From assembly GCF_006345805.1 (NCBI RefSeq), contig NC_043002.1:59272001-59336000 (forward strand): a DNA stretch of 64,000 nucleotides, in the 5' to 3' direction. The stretch comes from Octopus sinensis. Lineage: Eukaryota. Position numbers and translations under genes: made by a program. The first letter of the stretch is position 1; each line of letters begins with the position of its first letter. A model generated the notes under the pieces. It had not been told where the DNA came from and made no database searches. It worked only from the letters and a program-made list of their open reading frames with translations. Below, one piece after another: positions 3,336-48,816 of the stretch.

Positions 3336-5790
3336 ATGATCACTCTAGCTTTGTTCAGAGTATTTCAGTTGAAAAAACTCTCCTCTCAGATCACGACATG
3401 GTACTCTGCAATTTCAATTCCCGACATATAAAAACCAAACCAGCCAATCCCACTCCATGGCACTCATTTGATAACATAAACTTCCACAAAGCGGACTGGG
3501 GAGCAATCAGAAAGGATCTGTCTTTCATCGACTGGTCTTTTACTCTCAATTCCACCCATATTGAGACCGCATGGCAGCACTTTGAAAACATTGTCACATA
3601 TACATGCTCTAAACACGCTCCCACGAAATCTACTAACACAAACAGAAATCGGCTCCCTAAAAAGAAGAAAACACTCATCAGGCGCATCAAAAGACTTAAC
3701 AAAAAAATCAACCAATTAAAATATTCCCACAAACAACATCCACGTTCAACAACAATGAAAAGGCTAGAGCTGGAAAAACTTCATCTGCAGAACGACATGA
3801 AAACCTCCATTGAAAACCAAAGAGCTGCGGAGGAACAGTGGGTAATCAAAAACATCAAACAGAACCCAAAAGTGTTCTATTCCTATGAAAATAAGCATAG
3901 AACCACTGTCTCACCCATTGGGCCATTAATTGATGCTAACGGCATTCCCCAACACGATGCTAAAGAAATGGCAGAAATACTGCAGAAACAATACTGCTCG
4001 GTCTTTAGTGTTCCCACTGATATTGACGTAAGAGAAGCGAACGAAGTTGACTCCCAACATAAAATCTCAGACATAACCTTCACTCCCACTGACATCGTAG
4101 CAGCAATAAATGAGGTCAAATACTACTCTGCTGTAGGCCCTGATAGATTCCCCGCTAGTCTCCTGAAGGAATGTAGACACCAACTTGCAGTCCCTCTGAC
4201 CAACCTCTGGAGAAATTCGTTAGATGCAGGTTATATACCAAAACAGTTTCTATCCCAGTCAGTCATCCCGGTTTTCAAACAGGGAAACAGATCCCTCGCA
4301 CTCAACTATCGCCCAATCTCACTCACCTCCCACATCATCAAAGTGTTTGAAAGAGTGTTAAGATCAAGGATGGCTGACTTCCTGGAGACCCAGAAACTCC
4401 TAAATGCAAATCAACATGGCTTTCGCTGTGGCAGGGACTAACACAGCTCTTACACCACATTGAAGATGTACTCAAAGCCTTGGGAACAGGTTCGAACTCT
4501 GATGTCATATATCTTGACTTCAGTAAAGCGTTTGACAGGGTAGACCATAATATCCTACTCTCAAAATTGGCAAATGTTGGAATCCGTGGAAAAGTTCTAC
4601 ACTGGATCAAGTATTTCCTGGCGAATAGAACACAACATGTTGTAGTTGATGGAGTCCACTCAAGCCCAGCAAAAGTCACCAGCGGTGTCCCCCAGGGGAC
4701 TGTCTTGGGTCCGCTACTCTTCATAATCTACATAAACGACCTTTCCAGTGTCGTACATTACTGCAAAGTGAAAATTGCTGATGACACCAAGCTCCAGCAA
4801 ATCGTCAATGAAGAAGCAGACCGAACTCAACTCCAGTCTGATGTATATGCTGTGGGTCAATGGGCAGACAGAAACAAAATGCAACTGAACGAGGGAAAAT
4901 TTGAGCTGATGCATTTTGGAAGAAACTCCTCACTAAAACAGCCATACTTGCTTCCTTCAGGGGAACCGCTCACAGCCTCTAACAATATCAGAGACCTGGG
5001 TGTAATTGTTGATGACGATCTCAGTTGGAGTGCACACATCAACAAGAAGGTCGATATAGCTCGTAGGATGAGTTCCTGGATCTTAAGAACTTTCCGGTCC
5101 AGAGAACAAGGTGTCATCATACCACTTTTTTCCTCCTTTGTACGGCCACACCTTGAATACTGCTGCCCACTGTGGTCTCCTCACACAAGACAAAACATCT
5201 CCAGAATTGAGTCACCCCAGAGGGCACTCACTAAACGCATTGAAGGCATGGCTGCTCTCGATTATTGGGATCGCCTTAAAGCCTTGAAACTTTACTCCCC
5301 CCAGCGTCGCCGTGAGCGGTACATCATTTGTACGATGTGGAAAATATACCGCCAACTTTGCCCAAACGACCTAAACATTAGCTTCAAGGTTCATCCAAGA
5401 CTTGGACCACGGGCTATACGTCCCCTGCCCAATTCAAGATCACAACATACATGTACACTGCAACATAATTTCTTTTCCTCAACAGGCCCTGCCCTATTTA
5501 ACATTGTCCCGAGAGAGATCAAAGAGGAAAAGGATCCCATCAACTTTAAACAGAGTCTGGATAGATTCCTTCAAAGAATACCAGATAAGCCACCCATAAT
5601 TGGATATAACTCACCCAACAAGAACTCACTACTTGAACAAAACTGGATACAACTCACCCAACAAGAACTCACTACTTGAACAAAACTTGACTTAAACAGG
5701 ATTCGAATAATCCTATCAGGTGGTGCTATTAAGTTAGACATGGCCTGGACTAATCTTTGGTCGAAACATATCTAAGTTTATCTAAGTTTA
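3336..5790 (+). mobile_element. 5'-truncated CR1/Jockey-group LINE (end of APE endonuclease + RT), one frameshift near 4440
   Basis: ORFs 3269-4441 and 4480-5679 contain SDH, GPD, NYRPISLTS, QHGFR, YLDFSKAFD, SGVPQGTVLGPLLF, IADDTK, DLGV and RPHLEYCCPLWSP; 3' tail (tatctaagtt)2. Confidence 0.95.
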
Positions 5791-9778: not shown

Positions 9779-10136
9779 CAAAAATCACTCGCCATATCGC
9801 GGTTTACCTTTAGCGCCATCAGTACATCGCGGATTTTTCTGGCTAATATATGTAAATTTATATCGCGGGTTTCTGCGGCCGATAAATATTTATATTTTGA
9901 TAGATTTTTATTATTTTTGTGGTAAAACAAGCATTTTCACGCCTAAAAATAAATAAAGATAGAGTACAGTACTGCACTGTATAACACATTAATTAAAATA
10001 TATTAAAACAAAATACGTAGTGTGCCGCTGATGAGTAAACAAAGAATCGCACATACTGTATGGGAAACGAAACTCGGGAGGCGTGTGTATGGTGCTGTTT
10101 TGCATTTATAATAAAATAAATATATACAAATTATAA

Positions 10137-10213
<77 letters not shown>

Positions 10214-10315
10214 TAATAATAAATATACCGTAGAGTACTGTTTCTACTTCGCGGGTTTTCACCTATCTCGGGGGGGGGGTTGGAACTAACACACACGAAA
10301 GTCGAGGGATTATTG
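9779..10315. mobile_element. pogo/Tigger-like MITE with internal (AAT)n
   Basis: Imperfect TIR TA-caaaaatcactcg ... cgagggattattg-TA; no ORF. Confidence 0.6.
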
Positions 10316-10567
10316 TATATATAAAATTCCCGGTGGTGCGCTATACTTTGTCATCAAAGACTCAACACGGATGCTATATCTCTGTTACAATGGAACCATA
10401 TGACCCAGGATATTCAACAAAGAATATCCCATCTCCATCAATTGAGATCTATACAACAAGAAGGTGATGGATTCCTTTCAACGTCTTTTTTCACAACAAC
10501 CACAAACAGGGTGTGTCTCTTCACCTCCAACAATAGGGAGCAGTCGCAATATTTCATTCCACAACTA

Positions 10568-10647
10568 CCGTCTCTGAAGAGCGTAGGGTTACATAATCGG
10601 CTTGTTATCTAACACTCCGTTGAAACCTCTAGTGCGAGTGGTAAGAT
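10568..10647 (+). ncRNA. Degenerate type I hammerhead motif
   Basis: tct-CTGAAGA-gcg..ggtta...taac..cgtt-GAAA-cc...gg-TA-aga; stem II register is off by one base. Confidence 0.45.
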
Positions 10648-10735
10648 TGGCCTTTATGGATATATAGTTCCGTACACTTCGACTAATATATTAGTCGATG
10701 CATTTTCCCTGACTTATGGATTCTTAGACGGTACG

Positions 10736-10769
<34 letters not shown>

Positions 10770-11066
10770 TGATGAACTCTCCTGTCGGAGACGGCGTATG
10801 AGCGTTCAGCTTTTTGCTGAACGACCTGCACAAATGATTCGTTTATAGCGAACAAATATTGAGGCCGCACATTAGCTCACTCTCTCTAAAATCGACGTTA
10901 GCCGAACAGGTGCACAGTGTACCACGTGTCAGTTGTCGAAGTGATCGCAAAGCAACGTGAGATGAAATGTTTTGCCCAAGAACACAACGCACCGCCCAGT
11001 CTAGGAATTGAAATCACGATCGCTAGGTCATAAGTGCCTCTCTAACCACTAAACCACGAGTCCTCA
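10770..11066 (-). mobile_element. tRNA-derived SINE, degraded
   Basis: Minus strand starts with A box tggtttagtgg and B-box-like gatttcaattcc. Confidence 0.55.
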
Positions 11067-11314
11067 TACACCACACACACACACACACACACACATGTAC
11101 AGCTTCGTGTATTTTCATATATGTAGTTTCGAATATTCTTATCCATGATGGTGACGAGAACCAACGTTCCCATGTAGCAGGCTTTATTATTATTGTGAGA
11201 TTCCTCCCTACATGAAACTTCTGGTAGCCTTGTTAATCCACAGATAAAGAATATTTATCCACCCATGCAATGTTACCCGACATTAGCGTAATATGTATCA
11301 TTGTCCTTATTATT

Positions 11315-11532
11315 AAGGCGGTGAGGTGGCGGAACTGTTAGTTCGCCGGGTAAAATACTTAGCGGCATTTCATCCGTTTTTATGTTCTGAGTTCGAATGC
11401 CGCCGAGGTCAATTTTGCCTTTCATCCTTTTGGAGTCGATAACTTAAGTACCAGTAAAACACTGGGGTCGATGTAATCGAATAGGCCCCACCCGCCAAAT
11501 TTCAGGCCTTGTGCCTTTAGTAGAAAAGATTA
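11315..11532 (+). mobile_element. SINE family A, full length
   Basis: aaggcggtgaggtggcggaa ... gagttcgaatgccgccgaggtc ... ggccttgtgcctttagtagaaaag; multicopy in the window. Confidence 0.85.
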
Positions 11533-11723
11533 TTTTGGCAATTTCATTTCTGCGCATACGAGGGGGTACCCAAAAGTAATCGGAAACGTTCTCTCTGGGA
11601 CAAGTTGTATATATTCTTATATATGTGTACTTTGTTTAATGTTTAATATTTATATTTGCATTTTATATCTTCATTTTATATCTTCATAATTGTACTTTAT
11701 AATCTCTGACGAGGCCTTGATAT

Positions 11724-11777
<54 letters not shown>

Positions 11778-11895
11778 CGATTTAGGAGTGACCCCAACAG
11801 GTCACTCGTCCACCAGAAAGAGCAGCCATAACTCACACCGCCAAGTATTATTAATTCAGAAATTAGGTGAAAATTAAAACATTTACCCTAATTCA

Positions 11896-11996
11896 TCTTT
11901 TAGACGTTGCAACGTTTCTGTGTCATTAATGATTAAATTAGCTTAATTAAATTAAATTAAGCCAATCTACCATAGGTTACACTTCATCAGTAAAGA
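11896..11996 (-). ncRNA. Type I hammerhead ribozyme motif, unit 1 (repeated in units 2-5)
   Basis: Minus strand: tcttta-CTGATGA-a gtgt...acac a-GAAA-cgttgcaacg-TC-taaaaga. Confidence 0.7.
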
Positions 11997-14386
11997 CCTG
12001 GAGAGACAAATATACACGAGCGTCTGTATCGAAGCCTACGGGATATCTGACTTAAAATTTTCAAGACTGACGTATTCGCGCCAAACTTATCAACAGTAAA
12101 TATAAACTGCAAATTCATCTCAGAATTATTCAGAAAATTATCAATTAGTCAATTTAGGGTAGCAAAAAATTCAATAGAAATTTATCGCAACCAGCGGCCT
12201 GGTGAAAAAGAGAAAATAGTCATCGACTAAATATATAATATAACGATTTAGGAGTGACCCCAACAGGTCACTCGTCCACCAGAAAGAGCAGCCATAACTC
12301 ACACCGCCAAGTATTATTATTTCAGAAATTAGGTGAAAATTTAAAAACATTTACCCTAATTCATCTTTTAGACGTTGCAACGTTTCTGTGTCATTAATGA
12401 TTAAATTAGCTTAATTAAATTAAATTAAGCCAATCTACCATAGGTTACACTTCATCAGTAAAGACCTGGGAGAGACAAATACACGAGGCGTCTGTATCGA
12501 AGCCTACGGATATCTGACTTAAAATTTTCAAGACTGACGTATTCGCGCCAAACTTATCAACAGTAAATATAAACTGCAAATTCAATCTCAGAATTATTCA
12601 AAATTATCAATTAGTCAATTTAGGGTAGCAAAAAATTCAATAGAAATTTATCGCAACCAGCGGCCTGGTGAAAAAGAGAAAATAGTCATCGACTAAATAT
12701 ATAATATATAACGATTTAGGAGTGACCCCAACAGGTCACTCGTCCACCAAAAGAGCAGCCATAACTCACACCGCCAAGTATTATTAATTCAGAAATTAGG
12801 TGAAAATTTAAAAACATTTACCCTAATTCATCTTTTAGACGTTGCAACTTTCTGTGTCATTAATGATTAATTAGCTTAATTAAATTAATTAAGCCAATCT
12901 ACCATAGGTTACACTTCATCAGTAAAGACCTGGGAGAGACAATATACACGAGGCGTCTGTATCGAAGCCTACGGGATATCTGACTTAAAATTTTCAAGAC
13001 TGACGTATTCGCGCCAAACTTATCAACAGTAAATATAAACTGCAATTCAATCTCAGAATTATTCAGAAATTATCAATTAGTCAATTTAGGGTAGCAAAAA
13101 ATTCAATAGAAATTATCGCAACCAGCGGCCTGGTGAAAAAGAGAAAATAGTCATCGACTAAATATATAATATAACGATTTAGGAGTGACCCCAACAGGTC
13201 ACTCGTCCACCAGAAAGAGCGCCATAACTCCACACAACCGCCAGTATTATTAATTCAGAAATTAGGTGAAAATTTAAAAACATTTACCCTAATTCATCTT
13301 TTAGACGTTGCACGTTTCTGTGTCATTATTAATGATTAAATTAGCTTAATTAAATTAAATTAAGCCAATCTACTAGGTTACACTTCATCAGTAAAGACCT
13401 GGGAGAGACAAATATACACGAGGCGGTCTGTATCGAAGCCTACGGGATATCTGACTTAAAATTTTCAAGACTGACGTATTCGCGCCAAACTTATCAACAG
13501 TAAATATAAACTGCAAATTCAATCTCAGAATTATAGAAAATTATCAATTAGTCAATTTAGGGTAGCAAAAAATTCAATAGAAATTTATCGCAACCAGCGG
13601 CCTGGTGAAAAAAGAAAATAGTCATCGACTAAATATATAAATATAACGATTTAGGAGTGACCAACAGGTCACTCGTCCACCAGAAAGAGCAGCCATACTC
13701 ACACACCCGCCAAGTATTATTAATTCAGAAATTAGGTGAAAATTTAAAAACATTTACCCTAATTCATCTTTTAGACGTTGCAACGTTTCTGTGTCATTAA
13801 TGATTAAATTAGCTTAATTAAATTAAATTAAGCCAATCTACCATAGGTTACACTTCATCAGTAAAGACCTGGGAGAGACAAATATACACGAGGCGTCTGT
13901 ATCGAAGCCTACGGGATATCTGACTTAAATTTTCAAGACTGACGTATTCGCGCCAAACTTATCAACATAATATAAACTGCAAATTCAATCTCAGAATTAT
14001 TCAGAAATTATCAATTAGTCAATTTAGGGTAGCAAAAAATTCAATAGAAATTTATCGCAACCAGCGGCCTGGTGAAAAAGAGAAAATAGTCATCGACTAA
14101 ATATATAAATATAACGATTTAGGGTGACCCAACAGGTCACTCGTCCACCAGAAAGAGCAGCCATAACTCACACCGCCAAGTATTATTAATTCAAAATTAG
14201 GTGAAAATTTAAAAACATTTACCCTAATCATCTTTTAGACGTTGCAACGTTTCTGTGTCATTAATGATTAAATTAGCTTTATTAAATTAAATTAAGCCAA
14301 TCTACCATACTTCAGTCTTGAAAATTTTAAGTAGATATCCCGTAGGCTTCGATACAGACGCCTCGTGTATATTTGTCTCTCCCAGG

Positions 14387-14485
14387 TCTTTACTGATGAA
14401 GTGTAACCTATGGTAGATTGGCTTAATTAATTTAATAAGCTAATTTAATCATTAATGACACAGAAACGTTGCAACGTCTAAAAGA
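14387..14485 (+). ncRNA. Type I hammerhead ribozyme motif in the inverted copy
   Basis: CTGATGA 14393-14399, GAAA 14463-14466, palindrome cgttgcaacg 14467-14476, GTC triplet ending 14478, stem I tcttta/taaaaga. Confidence 0.7.
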
Positions 14486-15085
14486 TGAATTAGGGTAAAT
14501 GTTTTTAAATTTTCATAATTCTGAATTAATAATACTTGGCGGTGTGAGTATGGCTGCTCTTTCTGGTGGACGAGTGACCTGTTGGGGTCCTCCTAAATCG
14601 TTATATTATATATTTAGTCGCTGACTATTTTCTCTTTTTCACCAGGCCGCTGGTTGCGATAAATTTCTATTGAATTTTTTGCTACCCTAAATTGACTAAT
14701 ATATATATATATATATATAATATATATATATATATTATATATAAGTAACTCATTTCTAACTGCATATTACCTCAATACATCTGACTAATATGAGCATAAT
14801 GAGATACCCTTATCTACAGGCTGAAACAGATGTAAGATCCATTTTATATGTATTATTTTTATGGTATTATCTTACTTATTGATGTATATTGTTTTATTCT
14901 GTCTTAATCTGTTGGATTTGGATGTTCCTAGTCAATTAATTAGTTAATAAATTATATGAATTGGTATTATCTGGAAGTTGATGATTGAAAGGAATCTATT
15001 ACTCCATTTTCATATTTTGTATTATGAATTTGAGGTAAAACATTTTACCTTCGCCCATATAATACAATAAATGAACTAATTACAT

Positions 15086-15235
15086 TGCAATTGTAAGCAT
15101 TTATGTATTAGCCTTTTGGGTATTTTACTGGCAGTATATTGGATAAATGATATCCCATAGTGGGTTACAATCATAACCCCTATCTCACTTTGTGCTAGAT
15201 ATATATTACAATCATAACCCCTATCTCACTTTGTG

Positions 15236-15287
<52 letters not shown>

Positions 15288-15396
15288 CATAAAGTGAGAT
15301 AGGGGTTATGATTGTAACCCACTATGGGATATCATTTATCCAATACACTGCCAGTAAAATACCCAAAAGGCTAATACATAAATGCTTACAATTACA
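15086..15396. repeat. ~110 bp inverted repeat around (TA)n, with a 33 bp duplication on the left arm
   Basis: ttgtaagcattt...ctcactttgtgcta versus tagcataaagtgag...aaatgcttacaa. Confidence 0.9.
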
Positions 15397-15624
15397 TGTA
15401 AATTACATGTAAATACATGTAAATTTAAATTTAATATAATAAGGGTGAAAAATTAAATATTAATTTGAATAATATCAATTTAAAACCAGTGGTGTAGCAT
15501 ATTGAAAAGTATGAAGTTTCAGAAAAAATTATATTACATACATATAAGAGGGATGTTCACTTTCAGTTCTATGCCACTTATAATAGTTTCACTATTAAAG
15601 TGAAAGCATTTTGACATTACAATA

Positions 15625-15724
15625 NNNNNNNNNNNNNNNNNNNNNNNNNNNNNNNNNNNNNNNNNNNNNNNNNNNNNNNNNNNNNNNNNNNNNNNNNNNN
15701 NNNNNNNNNNNNNNNNNNNNNNNN
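15625..15724. other. Assembly gap (100 N)
   Basis: N run. Confidence 1.
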
Positions 15725-15924
15725 TAAAATCGACCTCGACGTGATTTGAACTGCAAATGTAAAGAACAACGTATTACTTTATTGCACTGATTCTGGAGCA
15801 GTTCCTCGCCCAACTCTACCCTCGACTTGTACCGAGACCTTTTTTCTTATTATTTCCCCACAACATATTTGGTAGCCCTACCATGTATTACATTACATAT
15901 AACATCGTATCACTGTATCGACTA

Positions 15925-16182
15925 AAGTATAGGATGGTCACAATGCGCTTCCTCGCATTGTTGTAGCTTTTCAATGATACCACCACGCTGGTCAGGTGGG
16001 CGAGCCAACATCATCCCCACCCTACGAGGCACCAGTCCGTCGCAGGTTTTCCCATTCACACCTAGACAAGGTGATTTGCTTAAAAAAAAAACATAAAGCA
16101 CCGCCGGTCTGAGAATCGAAACCGCGATATTGCGATCCTGAATGCAACACTCTACCCCAAAAACACTGGGTCACGCGCCTTT
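15925..16182 (-). mobile_element. tRNA-derived SINE family B, degraded
   Basis: Similar in reverse to 27017-27295 (ggtcacaatgcg, gaatcgaaaccgcgat). Confidence 0.6.
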
Positions 16183-16229
16183 ACACACACACACACACAC
16201 ATACACACGCACATGTCTATCACCCAAAT

Positions 16230-16263
<34 letters not shown>

Positions 16264-16266
<3 letters not shown>

Positions 16267-17537
16267 TTGGGGGGGGGGGAATAAATATTCGTATATGTCA
16301 ACATTATTTATTTAATTTCTAATGAACATAAATGGGATATACCAATACTATATTTGCATACACATGCATAAACTAAGAATATGCAGAAGAAACTAATAAA
16401 TTATTGTAACTAAGGAATTCATATTCAATTATAAATATTTAGGGGTGAAAAAGGTATTCGTACAGAATATAAATAACTGATAATTCTGATTTAATACTTC
16501 GTAGCATAACCATTATTCAGTTCCAATTCAACCAATCTTTTCTTATAGTTCTTAATCAATGACTCGCATGTTTCTTTAGGAATTTTTTCCCATTCTTCTT
16601 GACAGAATTTCTTCAAATCTTCAATGCACGTTGGGGCCCTTGAATGAATTTTAATTTTCAAATAATGCCACAAATTTTCAATGGGGTTCAAGTCAGGTGA
16701 CTGGCTTGGCCATTCTAATAATTTTATATTGTGATCGACAATCCATTTTTTGGTAGATTTCGCCGTGTGCTTAGGATCGTTATCCTGTTGTAAAACCCAC
16801 TCTTCACAAAGCTGGAGCTTTTCTACAGAGTCCCATAAATCATTGTTCAAAATATTTTGGTACATCTCTGGATTCATTCTACCATCTATCACATGAAAAT
16901 TGCCAGTACCATTTGCAGAGAAACACCCCCACACTATGATGTTGCCACCTCCAAACTTTACGGTAGGAATTGTGTTTTTCGGCAAATAGGCGGTGCCATC
17001 TTTCCTCCGAACATGGCTCCAAACAATTCAATTTTCGACTCGTCTGTCCATAGAACATTTTCCCAGAATGTATCAGATTTATCTTTATGTTCATAAACAA
17101 ATTTTAAACCGGCATCTCTATGCCTTTTAGTCAATTAAGATTTCACCGAATTTGTGAGCTCTTTACTTTTCGCCATTATTACGATACTACTTTTTGTTGT
17201 CTTAATGCTGAATGAAGAAGCTAGTGCTTTGACACATAAAAATGACAACTGATAAGATCATTGGAACAAACGAGAAAGTTCTAGTAAAAAAATATATTTT
17301 AACAGTATTTTGTGGCATAGAAAATCATAAATTTATTCTGTACGAATACTTTTTTATCCCGAAATATTTATAATTGTATATAAATTTATTAGTTACTATA
17401 ATTTATTAGTTTCTTTTGCATATTCTTAGTTTATGCATGTGTATGCAAATATAGTATTGGTATATCTCATTTATGTTCTTTAGAAATTAAATAAATAAAG
17501 AATTTTGACATATACGAATATTTATTTCCCCCCACTA
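16264..17537 (-). mobile_element. Tc1 (DD34E) transposon with ~210 bp IR/DR-type terminal repeats, internally deleted
   Basis: ORF 16491-16985: TVKFGGGNIIVWGCFS, QQDNDPKH, WPSQSPDLNPIENLW. TIRs ~16264-16475 and ~17330-17537, each with an outer and inner tattcgta repeat. Confidence 0.95.
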
Positions 17538-24015: not shown

Positions 24016-26877
24016 TGATTGATTGATTGATTGATTCCAGTTTCAGCTCACGAGCTGTGGCCGTGTTGGGGCACCGCCATTTGGTGTTGCTACATGGTTT
24101 TACTTCACAAATGCTTTTTAGCAACTGCCATTTGGTGCATGAGAGAGTTCGATGCAGCTGCCCTCATCTGCACCTCCTGCCGTGAAGTTGGTTCATCTGG
24201 GATACCTGACAAGAAGAGATCCAGTTTCATTTTAAAGACATCTGCATCCACCCCATGCAGGTCTCTTAGGTTCTTCGGGAGGATATTGAAGAGCTGTGAG
24301 CCTCGGAAGCCCAGGCTATCACAGTATCTTGTCCTACATCTTGATGGCAAATTTGGAGTCCAGCACCACGCAGTGGCGCCCAGTTCTGGCATTTGTGTAA
24401 TCTCGATGCCAAAGTTTGGGACAAGTCCCACCAGGATCTTCCAGATGTATATTATGGCATATCTTTCTCGCCTACGCTCCAAGGAATAGAGTTTTAATCT
24501 CTTGAGTCTTTCCCAGTAGCTTATATTCTGCACAGAGGCTATCTTCTTCGTGTAGCTACGTTGGATCGCCTCAAGTTCTGTGATCAACTTGACACTGGAT
24601 GGTGACCATAGCTAGAGCAATAGTCAAAGTGGCTTAGGACTAGTGTCCTCCAGAGGACCATCATGGTTTCTTGTTCTCTTGTTCTAAAGGTTCTGAGAAT
24701 CCATTAGGCCAGTCGTCTACATTTCATTGCCAATTTAGCAACATGTACACGAAAGGTTGCGTCATGACTCATGTAAATACCCAGGTCACGCACTGACTGT
24801 GCCTCTGGGATTGCAATTCCTCTGGGTCCAGTGTATTCATTGGGTATTGCATTTAGTTTTGCATGCTGATAGTATAAAGCTTAAAACTTTTCAGCATTGA
24901 ACTGAACTGCATGCTATTCTTTTCAGCCCACTTGTATATTTTGTCCAGCTCACATTGCAGGCGTTTAGTGTCCTCAGGGTTCTGTATTGGCTGTGAAACT
25001 TTTGTATCATCTGCATAACTTGTGATCGTGGCTCTCTGCGTGGCTGAGGGCATGTCTGAGAGGGCCATTATGAACAGTAGTGGTCCCAAAACAGTGCCCT
25101 GCGGAACACCGCTCACTATTTGCGTGTTAATGGAAGTGGCCCCATTAGCTACTACCACTTGACTTCTATCTTTCAGAAAGTCATGAAGCCATTCTCCCAG
25201 TTTTCCAACTATGCTAAGATCACGCAGTTTGTGACATATCATTCCATGATCGACTTTATCAAAGGCCTTTGAAAGTCGAGATATATCACTTCCACATTTG
25301 AGTGGTTGAGCGGTCGTTTCAACACCCAGTCATAGTGTTGTAGGAGCTGAGTTAAGCAGCTTCTTCCTGGTCGGAAACCATGTTGGGTGTCAGGCAGCAA
25401 GTTATTTTCTTCAAGGAAGGTGATCAGTTTCCTTCTGACTATTCGTTCCATGACCTTGTTGATGTGTGAGGTTAGAGAGATAGGTCTGTAGTTCTTGGCC
25501 TCCGCTCTGCTACCTCCTTTATGAATAGGGGGCATATTTTACCTTCCTTCAGTTTTCTTGGAAGTTTGCCAGCTGCAAGGAAGCTCTGAAAGAGGAACTG
25601 CAGTGGTCTTGCTAGGACTCTCTTACATACTTTTAGGAGGATTGCCGGGAATCCATCGGGGCCAGTAGCTGAGCCTGTTTTCATTTCATCTATAGCCTTT
25701 ATTACATCGTCTTCCTTTATATCGATGTAATCTATCGTCGCCGCCTCTGATTTTATATCTGCAGTGGTAAAGAAGTCAGTTGGATTGGTGATTTGGAAAT
25801 GCCCAAGGGGTGGAGTGAAAACACTCTTGAAGTGCTCATTCAGTATTTCACTTACCCTCATTGGTTTTCCTGTGAGTGTGCCATCCTTTTCAAGGAGTGG
25901 CCCTATCCTACAGTGTACCGTAGCTGTTTCTTTGGCATACCTGTAGAAAGCTCCGAGGTTAGATTTTATGTTGTCTATAGCCCAGGCTTCTTTGTCTGCT
26001 CTTTCCTTTTCATGGGAGAGTTGCAGACATTTTTCAATTTCCAACAGTTTTATTTTCAGGCAGGACTTTTCACTGCTTTCAATTTGTTTGTTTAGGCGAT
26101 TTGAAATTTTTGTACGTCGTCTCATTAAATTTTTCCTCTCTCTGGGGATTTTGTTCTTGTGTACAGTGGCCTTTCTCTCTGGGACACATTTGTAGCATAT
26201 GGCTTGCATTACAGACATGAATTGTTGAAGTTTCACGTCGATGTCTGGCGAGGAGAGACATTCAGGCCAGTTTTGTTTGAGGATCTCTTTCTCAATTTAT
26301 TTCCAGTTTACCTTATGGAAGTTAAAACTGGAAAGATTCTGAGGGTTTCTTGTAGGCTGCATGTCCATGCTTTCCTTTGGCCCGTACATAGTCAGCTCTA
26401 CCATGTTGTGATCCGAGAGTAGTGTCGGTGTCACTTTCACATTATGGATGAGATCCATATTATTTGCGAAGCAGAGATCCAGTGTCTTACCTGCCCTGGT
26501 TGGTTGGAGTATTACTTGCTCCATGTACAGGGTGTTGATGAGGTTCAGGAGGGACCTCGCCTGTCCTCGTTCACATCTTGTCATTCCTGGGAGAGAAAGG
26601 CCCTCGGGCCATCTGACATTGGGTAGATTGAAGTCTCCCATAAGAAGTACACCTATGTGTTGTTCTAATGTGATTAGAACTTCTTCTATTTTTATAAGGC
26701 AGTCTTCAAACTTGCCTACATGGCTTGGGGCATCTGGAGGGCGATATGTAGCACACACAACTACATCAAGTTGCCTTATATGTACAATTAGTGTGTCACA
26801 CACCGAGTTTGAGTATGACAAAAGGACCTGGGGTGTGAGGTCCTCACAGATGTACATAGCAACTCCTCCATGACTCA
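24016..26877 (-). mobile_element. Near full-length ORF2 CR1/Jockey-group LINE (APE + RT), frameshifted
   Basis: GGVAMY, YRPP, GDFN, PTR..LDL, SDH, NYRPISLTS, QHGFR, SGVPQGTVLGPLLF and YADDTK; (caat)n tail at 24016-24036. Confidence 0.95.
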
Positions 26878-26915
26878 TATATATATATATATCTATATAT
26901 ATATATAATATATAT

Positions 26916-26977
<62 letters not shown>

Positions 26978-27519: not shown

Positions 27520-28541
27520 ATACATAAAAAATGTTCCCCGCCTAAATCATTTCCATGGCTGTGGTTTAAAAAAAGACAAGGGCGCAATCCCTCACAAAAC
27601 GGAGTAGTTCCAACTTATTTGGTCTTCATGATCCGAAACTCCGTTTCTCGAAACTCCTCTCCCTACCCCATCGGAAAAAATTTCCTCCACAAATTTCTTT
27701 ATAATCGTAATCTATGACGTTTGAAAGGTATTTACACAAAACTTCATTAAATGAGGGAAAATGTCAGATCGTGTGAATTTTCCGAAACTCCTCTCCCTAC
27801 ATCCTCGAAAAGATTCTGTCCCATAAATTCCTATATACATTCAATCCACATCATCTATGGTATTTGTTGAAAATTTCGTTAGAAAGTGTCCATTTTTCTG
27901 GAAGTTATGAGGCAACAAAGTCGGCATGTGCGTGTGTGTGTTTGTGTGGAGGGCTAACAAATGTAGTTTTGCCAATTTCGTTTGTGTGCTAGCTTGCGTG
28001 CATATTTTTCTGTAATTTAATACAGCCAGACCGGCGCCTAACGGGAAAATATTCTGAAAGTAAGGTACACCTGAAATGTGAATTCAAACAGAATAAAACG
28101 AGTTACGCGTAAATCGGACCACAGATTCCCGAGATAGGGTGGTTTTTAGAGGTACCTTCATAAACAGCCAAATCGGTGCATAATGGGAAAAATACTCTGA
28201 AAGTAACATAACTCAGAAGTGGGAAAATTGCTTCCATTAATTTTATGTTTACGTTATATAACAATTCCGTTTACATTTTTATAGAAATGAGCATATATGC
28301 CATAAATAAATGGAGTTACAGGAGTTCAAGTTTATCCCGGAAGTTATATTTCTATTAGATGCTGTAAATAATCAATAAAACCTTTAAACATGAACTTGTA
28401 AACCAGACCTGTGATGACATGAACTGAAATATTTAACTGAATCATCATAAAATTAACTTTCATTTCAATGCAATGTTGAAATCAGCTTCAATGTTTTATA
28501 ACCTGAACTGTCAGTGACCCAACAGGTCACGGGTAGTCTAG
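27520..28541. mobile_element. Possible non-autonomous Helitron/Helentron-like relic
   Basis: Internal repeats (cgaaactcctctccctac x2); terminal hairpin gtgacc-caaca-ggtcac followed by gggtagtCTAG. Left boundary is uncertain. Confidence 0.3.
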
Positions 28542-28723
28542 CATATATATATATATATACACATATATATATCTTACATATACATGCATACATACACACA
28601 CGCACAAACACATATATGTCTATGTATATTTGTGTGTATCTTTGTGTGTGCAAGCGTGTGTGTGTGAGTGTGTATGTGTGCGCGTGTTTGTACGTGTATA
28701 TGGGCTTGTATATTTCTGTATAA

Positions 28724-48015: not shown

Positions 48016-48369
48016 ATGTTGGTGGACACTGCAAAATTGAATGGTACTACACAAGTGTCGAAACCATAGTGATATCTGTTCGGGCAGCCGATGATGAGAA
48101 TACACAATTGTTATGCTTGATAGTGAATTTCTTATGTTGGTGGACACTGCAAAATTGAATAGTACTACACAAGTGTTGAAACCATAGGGTTATCTGTTTG
48201 GGCAGCCGATGATGAGAATACACAATTGTTATGCTTGATAGTGAATTTCTTATGTTGGTGGACACTGCAAAATTGAATAGTACTACACAAGTGTTGAAAC
48301 CATAGGGATATCTGTTTGGGCAGCCGATGATGAGAATACACAATTGTTATGCTTGATAGTGAATTTCCT
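48016..48369. repeat. Three near-identical 118 bp tandem units
   Basis: atgttggtggacactgc starts at 48016, 48134 and 48252. Confidence 0.97.
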
Positions 48370-48816
48370 ATATTTTAGCCTCGTTATTCAGGATTATCCT
48401 TCATTCTTGTAAAGTGATAGGTATTTGTGGATTCATAGTCTTTGGCGATCACTAACATTGATATTGTTTGGTTTTCTTCATAGGTAACCTAATTAAGCTT
48501 GAATATTGCTTAAATATTGGTGTCTAGTTTTGGGAGGTTCTATGTCATAGGATCAGCAGTCAAATATGAATTTTGGGAAATTTATACAAATCTTCAACTG
48601 GATATGCTTCCAATTTTTGCCTATTATTTCTGCCGTCATAAACACTGGGAAATAATAACGCTCTTAGGCCGGACAACATTTCATTAGAGATCCGGGAGGT
48701 GTATGGTTATCTCTGCAAATAATCACTTCCTAACAAGGGCGCCGAATCTGGAGTATATTTCCCAAAATTTGATGGTTGCAAACATGGCTATCATTTACAA
48801 AAACAAAGGAGATATA

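Follow-up and report, generated by a model that had tools for sequence, protein, structure and literature searches.

How does a short RNA without an open reading frame come to be written into a genome as a tandem array with an inverted copy of itself attached? The question is raised by positions 11775 to 14700 of the window, the stretch of 64,000 nucleotides of Octopus sinensis DNA analysed here, which the initial annotation took in its whole extent for one tandem array with a hammerhead ribozyme in each unit. TRF detects a 466-bp unit repeated 5.5 times at 11764-14309 (95% matches, score 4697), and together with the unit alignment this bears out the array and the motif in all five full units, including the 1-bp palindrome deletion that had been seen in each of units 3 and 4. 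The claimed extent holds as array up to 14309; the remainder, 14307-14700, is an inverted arm and not further array. No ORF of at least 120 aa overlaps the array, as had been reported, the GC content of 12001-14000 is 0.34, and no LTR layout is seen in the element. Differences among the window units comprise 41 gap cells versus 23 substitution cells, the latter number being inflated by misalignment.

Arm A (11775..14309, minus strand) consists of about 5.4-5.5 tandem units in the hammerhead sense. In unit positions counted from the predicted cleavage site, its 3' end lies at position ~130-133, termed site A, and is followed by (AT)n, and at its 5' end the sixth unit stops at unit position 397 and is devoid of CUGAUGA. 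Arm B (14307..14700, plus strand) is an inverted 0.85 unit with a complete hammerhead motif, which begins at unit position 297, takes in the hammerhead and ends at site B (~225-227), where (AT)n follows. The two arms overlap by 3 nt at the centre. The window insertion is therefore made of two arms that point outward, each running into (AT)n. This layout of two arms with two fixed ends is the key feature of the locus and was left undeveloped in the first reading, which named the inverted copy only among its checks. Just 5' of site A lies a hairpin (11786..11807, minus strand), the stem of which varies by paired changes among relatives and which is likely to be part of the initiation signal for the reverse transcriptase (RT). 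A short hairpin word like it adjoins (AT)n at 28516-28545, with the loop oppositely oriented, and is probably unrelated. Inspection by eye also reveals a putative intron-like segment (12200..12354, minus strand; unit positions 17-171) that contains site A and shows a GU donor, a UGAC branch-like motif, a pyrimidine tract and a CAG acceptor, signals that by eye are partly common to families 2 and 3 described below. No spliced copy of a unit is present in 77 loci, where segment 17-171 is always retained. Back-splicing was considered as a source of circular RNA and is ruled out, because it would lose positions 17-171, which are kept in every unit. Elsewhere in the window, three tandem copies of a 118-bp unit (97% matches) occupy 48016-48371, and matches to RVT_1, AP endonuclease and DDE_3 at 4378-5679, 26297-26977 and 16491-17027 represent fragments of other mobile elements.

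Each full unit carries on the minus strand, in order, stem I, CUGAUGA, A, GUGU...ACAC enclosing an internal AU-rich hairpin, A, GAAA, a palindromic stem III, GUC and UAAAAGA, so that the canonical type I core (C3-U4-G5-A6-N7-G8-A9, G12-A13-A14, A15.1-U16.1 and H17) is present. The motif of unit 2 (12364..12464, minus strand; CUGAUGA starting at 12458) is an intact example with predicted cleavage between 12371 and 12370, and its equivalents start at 11990, 12922, 13391 and 13861. The motif of arm B (14387..14485, plus strand; CUGAUGA at 14393-14399) has A/A at 10.1/11.1 and a predicted cleavage site 3' of 14478. The G10.1-C11.1 pair that closes stem II is absent from this family, which has A/A in 588 cores and A/C or A/G in 17. 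According to the available text of PMC4209133, an extra nucleotide after A9 is typical of the hammerheads of Penelope-like elements (PLEs) and the G10.1-C11.1 pair is highly conserved, and weak cleavage persists in an axolotl hammerhead whose stem II starts with U/U (PMC7229834, in part). Position 11.1 is A, C, U or G among the relatives: 10.1/11.1 is A/A, A/C, A-U or, in one locus, G-C in subfamily 1b and G-C in families 2 and 4, and the A/A found in family 3 belongs to a different stem II. Thus, the A/A apposition that had been singled out as unusual is real but is no fixed trait.

A search with hammerhead models, a check that the initial annotation had proposed, found no match to those of Rfam at E values up to 10 in positions 10000-16500. 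Folding predictions place the active hammerhead fold 4.0-4.9 kcal/mol above the local minimum, with a pairing probability of about 0.01 for stem I. As judged from these predictions, the ribozyme is likely to be slow, which would suit a lasting circle. Stem III, with 4 bp and a tetraloop, could fold in a monomer. The conservation of the core across families, together with paired substitutions in stems II and III, supports selection on the hammerhead fold.

The insertion has split another repeat. The left and right (AT)n target tracts, as called by TRF, lie at 11720..11776 and 14699..14743. Outside them are the two halves of a host repeat on the plus strand: the left one (11608..11719) holds the 5' half of a different hammerhead, with CUGACGA at 11706-11712, and the right one (14745..15240) holds the 3' half of that hammerhead, with GAAA at 14823-14826. 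In other copies these halves are contiguous across bare (AT)n. Among 11 other host-repeat loci that were fetched, the left anchor is present in 10, 9 of which continue into the right flank, and the right flank is present in all 11. Because the flanks are contiguous across bare (AT)n elsewhere, the window holds one clean insertion of ~2.9 kb. The (AT)n of the host repeat sits in the stem II loop of its own hammerhead, and this loop is longer than 100 nt. The host repeat is itself a hammerhead-bearing family with 994 candidates and is likely to be a landing site for other (AT)n-targeting elements. Next to the insertion, 15077-15405 is an inverted repeat with 130-nt arms (94%) around (TA)25, which looks like two host-repeat ends facing each other, and a 41-bp tandem duplication at 15165-15247 is possibly one of tail length. 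The only Rfam matches are to microRNA models, on the (AT)n palindrome at 15206-15317. Across the loci described below, 65 of 75 A-motif hits and 40 of 49 B ends pass a cut of 0.7 for TA/AT; the ends that fail mostly have shorter (AT)n, and two of the A hits look spurious.

A search of the 2.72-Gb assembly with the unit returned 873 candidates, 39 of which were scored to give 225 matches, with 92-100% identity among the 150 matches listed. An exact 21-nt core has 588 matches in the genome, as opposed to none for the reversed control. Given these counts and relatives that keep the core while changing the stem pairs, the hammerhead is not a chance motif, and the two lines of evidence that had been named as checks, genome-wide copy number and stem covariation, both came out in its favour. 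The proposal of a young non-autonomous element is supported by the high copy number and by the identity among the matches listed. The unit length, in contrast, had been counted among the unusual points, whereas retrozyme units range from 51 to 972 bp in the available text of Li et al. 2026 (bioRxiv 10.64898/2026.07.22.740005). The closest relative, subfamily 1b, is marked by a paired double change in stem III (647 cores; 82-95% identical in the 7 loci compared). Three further relatives, families 2, 3 and 4, keep the core (with U4C in family 3), have paired substitutions in stems II and III and carry C or A at H17; family 3 aligns with family 2 at ~60%. Family 3 (L198, L201, L202 and others; 1953 candidates) combines U4C and A/A with a non-palindromic loop III, and more hammerhead families with a long branched stem II and varied 10.1/11.1 occur in L150:8260-9370, L152:7300-8200, L202, L210 and L222. 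An autonomous PLE with an endonuclease domain (EN+) was tried as an identity for the element and ruled out, as there is no ORF with RT and GIY-YIG. By the features that could be tested, the sequence classifies the element as a non-LTR retrozyme inserted by a Penelope-type route.

The two fixed ends of the window insertion recur throughout the family. We compared 78 loci, comprising the window, 35 loci from among the best hits, 2 loci from a variant search and 40 loci taken in genome order from the first 100 of the 588 core matches, the last sample being biased to intact cores; L066-L068 were left out as duplicates of L065. Two arms are present in 54 of the 78 loci, and all are divergent. In 51 of these 54, one arm ends at A and the other at B, ~95 nt apart, and the other three (L059, L187 and L191) have one odd end each; A/A or B/B pairings do not occur among the 54. 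If each arm chose its site independently at even odds, 51 mixed pairs out of 51 would have a probability of 4e-16. The genome-order sample alone gives A/B in 26 of 28 two-armed loci. The B ends are sharp, three adjacent positions covering 43 of 49. The 24 single-armed loci end at A in 20 cases and at B in 4, and in some of them a very short second arm, of the kind found in L176, may be concealed. In 25 of 50 loci arm A exceeds arm B in length; the window was mis-clustered in this count, and arm A is longer there. The same layout is seen in 6 of 6 complete loci of subfamily 1b and, by eye, in 13 of 30 loci of family 2, which has a few odd short arms and no A/A pairing.

The second regularity is that each insertion carries one haplotype. 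Clonality was counted in 399 segments of the 78 loci for locus-variant pairs covered by at least 3 units, which gave 132 singleton, 183 fixed and 7 partial pairs, as compared with 527, 6.8 and 215, respectively, in 200 shuffles. Substitution distance is 0.28% within an arm, 0.34% between the arms of a locus and 2.05% between loci. Of the fixed variants, 14 each occur in a single locus out of the 78, 8 of them across both arms; the private variant of the window, at unit positions 259-260, is found in 5 of 5 units. In a genome-wide pattern search, C at 11.1 is confined to one locus, where it fills 14 units in both arms, and G at 11.1 to one other locus, with 3 units in both arms. Because a new variant arises in one unit, the filling of a whole array requires a bottleneck of one monomer followed by re-expansion. 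The 5' ends are spread over the unit, with 2 of 132 lying within 3 nt of the cleavage site versus 2.0 expected. The cleavage junction is unscarred, one of three haplotypes being found there in 203 of 210 cases; at control positions the commonest form accounts for 192/213, 171/190, 135/167, 146/159 and 193/203. Taken together, these patterns fit best with a covalently closed monomer as the template. The suggestion of the initial annotation that the concatemer reflects copying round a monomer circle is thus strengthened by clonal units without a pile-up of 5' ends or a scar at the cleavage site, and its mention of a Penelope RT as the possible copier is strengthened by Penelope-type insertion anatomy across the loci. 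Against this stand the 7 partial variants and one terminal unit of L146 with another haplotype; moreover, in both arms of L058:2550-6733 successive units switch almost regularly between two forms at unit position 16, which may reflect a dimer circle or a polishing effect. Many of the singletons and indels may be sequencing errors.

The genome contains a candidate for the enzyme, though it is a candidate only. Intact young PLEs encode 781 aa with RT, a CxxC linker and GIY-YIG, and run into (AT)n at either of two sites that lie 44 nt from each other; the only two two-armed loci visible among 32 both pair the two sites. In L154:3239-6939 and L151:2674-6374, the young PLE is Neptune-like and has a separate 479-aa frame upstream of the RT frame, with a 44-nt tail. 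No hammerhead was recognised in the UTR of the young PLE itself. The GIY-YIG scan scored 150 of 5029 candidates, with one family dominant. Apart from one fusion with family 3, no autonomous PLE sharing the unit sequence was found in 38 GIY-YIG loci and 20 upstream regions. This fusion (L154:6955-7630, in 1 of the 20 upstream regions) joins a family 3 arm, the opposite arm of which ends at site A, to the 5' end of an intact PLE, and arose either by insertion of one element into the other or by switching of the template between the RNAs of PLE and retrozyme. L154 was considered as a PLE with a homologous pLTR and rejected, as its 5' part is a family 3 retrozyme fused at a short shared AT-rich word. 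Likewise, hammerheads nearby in L150 and L152 do not belong to the PLEs but to further retrozyme-like insertions.

The reading that we favour, with a probability of roughly 0.6, is that an RT/GIY-YIG enzyme of the Penelope type nicked both strands of the (AT)n tract and, with A and B on a single circular RNA of ~470 nt as priming sites, copied round this circle from both. Multimeric transcripts would be cut by the slow hammerhead, perhaps as a dimer or with the help of proteins, and a host ligase would join the cut monomers into circles. The Penelope-type enzyme would then nick both strands of an (AT)n tract and prime at the two fixed internal sites of one circular monomer, each cDNA would roll through a variable number of turns, and the two cDNA 3' ends would be joined head to head via short complementarity, often at hairpins of the RNA. 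Overlaps of a few bases are common at the centres. Possibly the enzyme works as a dimer whose two active sites engage A and B, respectively. The parts of this scheme are not equally firm: that a PLE enzyme made the insertion is highly probable, a monomer circle as template is quite probable, twin priming at A and B is probable to a slightly lesser degree, and hammerhead cleavage as the source of the monomer is somewhat favoured. In LINE-1 twin priming, a second nick primes a second cDNA, which leads to a divergent inversion with a microhomology join; there the second site varies, and each arm is copied from its own stretch of a linear RNA, with no overlap between the two. In the window family, by contrast, the second site is fixed, and one and the same unit is copied over and over into both arms.

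The two arms could also arise from a single priming event, if the 3' end of one RT arm folds back and is copied into the inverted arm, while the tandem units may still be derived from a circle; such self-priming has been argued, in outline, for the inverted junctions of Penelope (PMC3846280, in part). One haplotype in both arms would follow automatically, the first three units of L058 read G, A, G outward in both arms, several centres coincide with a palindrome or hairpin of the unit, and centres no more than 20 nt off symmetry number 15 out of 54 as compared with 4.7 expected (p=4e-5). However, two same-sense cDNAs pair only at local inverted repeats, so that their annealing predicts near-symmetric centres equally well, and in the other 39 loci the centre is off symmetry by more than 20 nt. 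Which arm is longer varies between loci, variants shared by 2 of n units (L061 and L146) are not at mirror positions, and a copy of an A-primed arm would pass many A sites, yet A/A is found in 0 of 54 loci. Fold-back is thus unlikely. A template other than a circle is doubtful to a similar degree. If the hammerhead were largely inactive, A and B would be primed either on a linear multimer of the source array or on a cut monomer with repeated jumps within the same molecule. The weak predicted fold and the A/A apposition, to which family 3 adds U4C, are consistent with this, as are an anole PLE that works in vitro without the need for cleavage (PMC11167929) and the cleavage of 1 of 9 Xenopus retrozyme dimers (Li et al. 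2026), both as given in the available text. A linear multimer, however, cannot fix a new variant over up to 14 units or lengthen arrays, and many haplotypes each fill whole arrays, with 7 partial variants where 215 are expected; the cleavage site shows neither scars nor a pile-up of 5' ends, and the core is kept and the stems covary across families ~60% alike.

Growth of the satellite type, in which a short insertion is amplified by unequal crossover and homogenised, or plain assembly errors, would account for tandem units at a single locus. Differences among the window units are mostly gaps, as in long-read errors, three fetched scaffolds duplicate one locus, and local amplification is suggested in the available text of Li et al. 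2026. Nevertheless, the unique flanks rebuild an intact empty site, homogeneity crosses the inversion, none of the 7 partial variants is confined to one arm, and polishing would draw units to the family majority and not to private letters. Contigs of other sequencing runs (8 of 22 runs, the RNA origin of which is not on record) also hold the unit, the unit-to-unit joint and opposite-strand joints; their strand, ends and level are not readable, and the lack of a spliced joint among them is not informative. We consider this explanation very improbable, and copying of one monomer circle from both A and B remains the preferred reading.

Like metazoan non-LTR retrozymes, the window family consists of tandem units of low GC content that encode no protein, bear one type I hammerhead apiece and are dispersed over many loci (Cervera and de la Pena 2020, PMC7229834; Li et al. 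2026; both in part). For these retrozymes a circular RNA has been proposed as the intermediate that a PLE RT copies to tandem cDNA, and in the available text of PMC7229834 the step from circle to tandem DNA is a proposal without direct test. The window family differs from them in its long branched stem II and its A/A base, and divergent arms, two fixed 3' ends and clonality per insertion are not described for non-LTR retrozymes in the available text of PMC7229834 and Li et al. 2026; the word 'inverted' is absent from the former and occurs in the latter once, in the title of a reference. Nor do cephalopods appear in these two accounts as far as their text is available. The literature covered, mostly without subscription papers or Repbase and in part, describes no cephalopod retrozyme family, no two-armed retrozyme arrays, no strict pairing of start sites and no clonal arrays as evidence for circles, and a giant squid paper, in the part available, only counts 235 hammerhead matches. 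Homology of the window family to the pLTR of an autonomous PLE was not found in the 38 GIY-YIG loci and 20 upstream regions, and in the available text of Li et al. 2026 24 of 57 Xenopus retrozyme families match a known TE.

The insertion anatomy has its closest parallels among EN+ PLEs, which, in the available text of Craig et al. 2021 (PMC8557442) and Arkhipova et al. 2013 (PMC3846280), share a head-to-head inverted arm, extension at one end, partial tandems, microsatellite or AT-rich targets, junction microhomology, a hammerhead and possibly a retained intron. The window family differs from them in having no ORF and in that both arms can be multi-unit arrays; its tail is ~95 nt long versus 30-40 nt in the described EN+ PLEs, and the tail rule, strict here (51/54), is optional or frequent in those papers. 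The anole Poseidon PAc, as described for in vitro reactions in the available text of Frangieh et al. 2024 (PMC11167929), likewise has two internal RT starts, close to a stem-loop, at the limits of the tail; it nicks both strands of an AT-rich target, extends each of them and is predicted to form a dimer. In that system the start sites are alike between strands and a linear RNA is used, whereas in the window family each insertion event links one site to one strand and the second site to the opposite strand, and the template is probably circular.

The retrozymes, the inverted arms and the tails are already known, and what was not found in print is the strict A/B pairing together with clonality. 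Each ingredient taken alone has precedents, so that what is gained is a sharper view of mechanism and not an element of a new class. The origin of inverted copies and one-ended tails of PLEs is called unresolved in the available text of PMC8557442, PMC3846280 and PMC11167929, and the many natural insertions of this family follow two strict regularities, A/B pairing and a single haplotype in each insertion, which separate twin priming from fold-back and a circle from a concatemer. For in vitro work, these regularities also specify a short RNA with its two start sites and an (AT)n target. We tentatively propose that an RT dimer holds one circle at two fixed start sites, one for each nicked strand, and rolls from both at once. 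If so, a single scheme would account for three features of PLEs, namely their inverted copies joined head to head, their tails at one end only and their partial tandems, and its record would be kept in hundreds of insertions of a retrozyme with a hammerhead that can do without a closed base of stem II.
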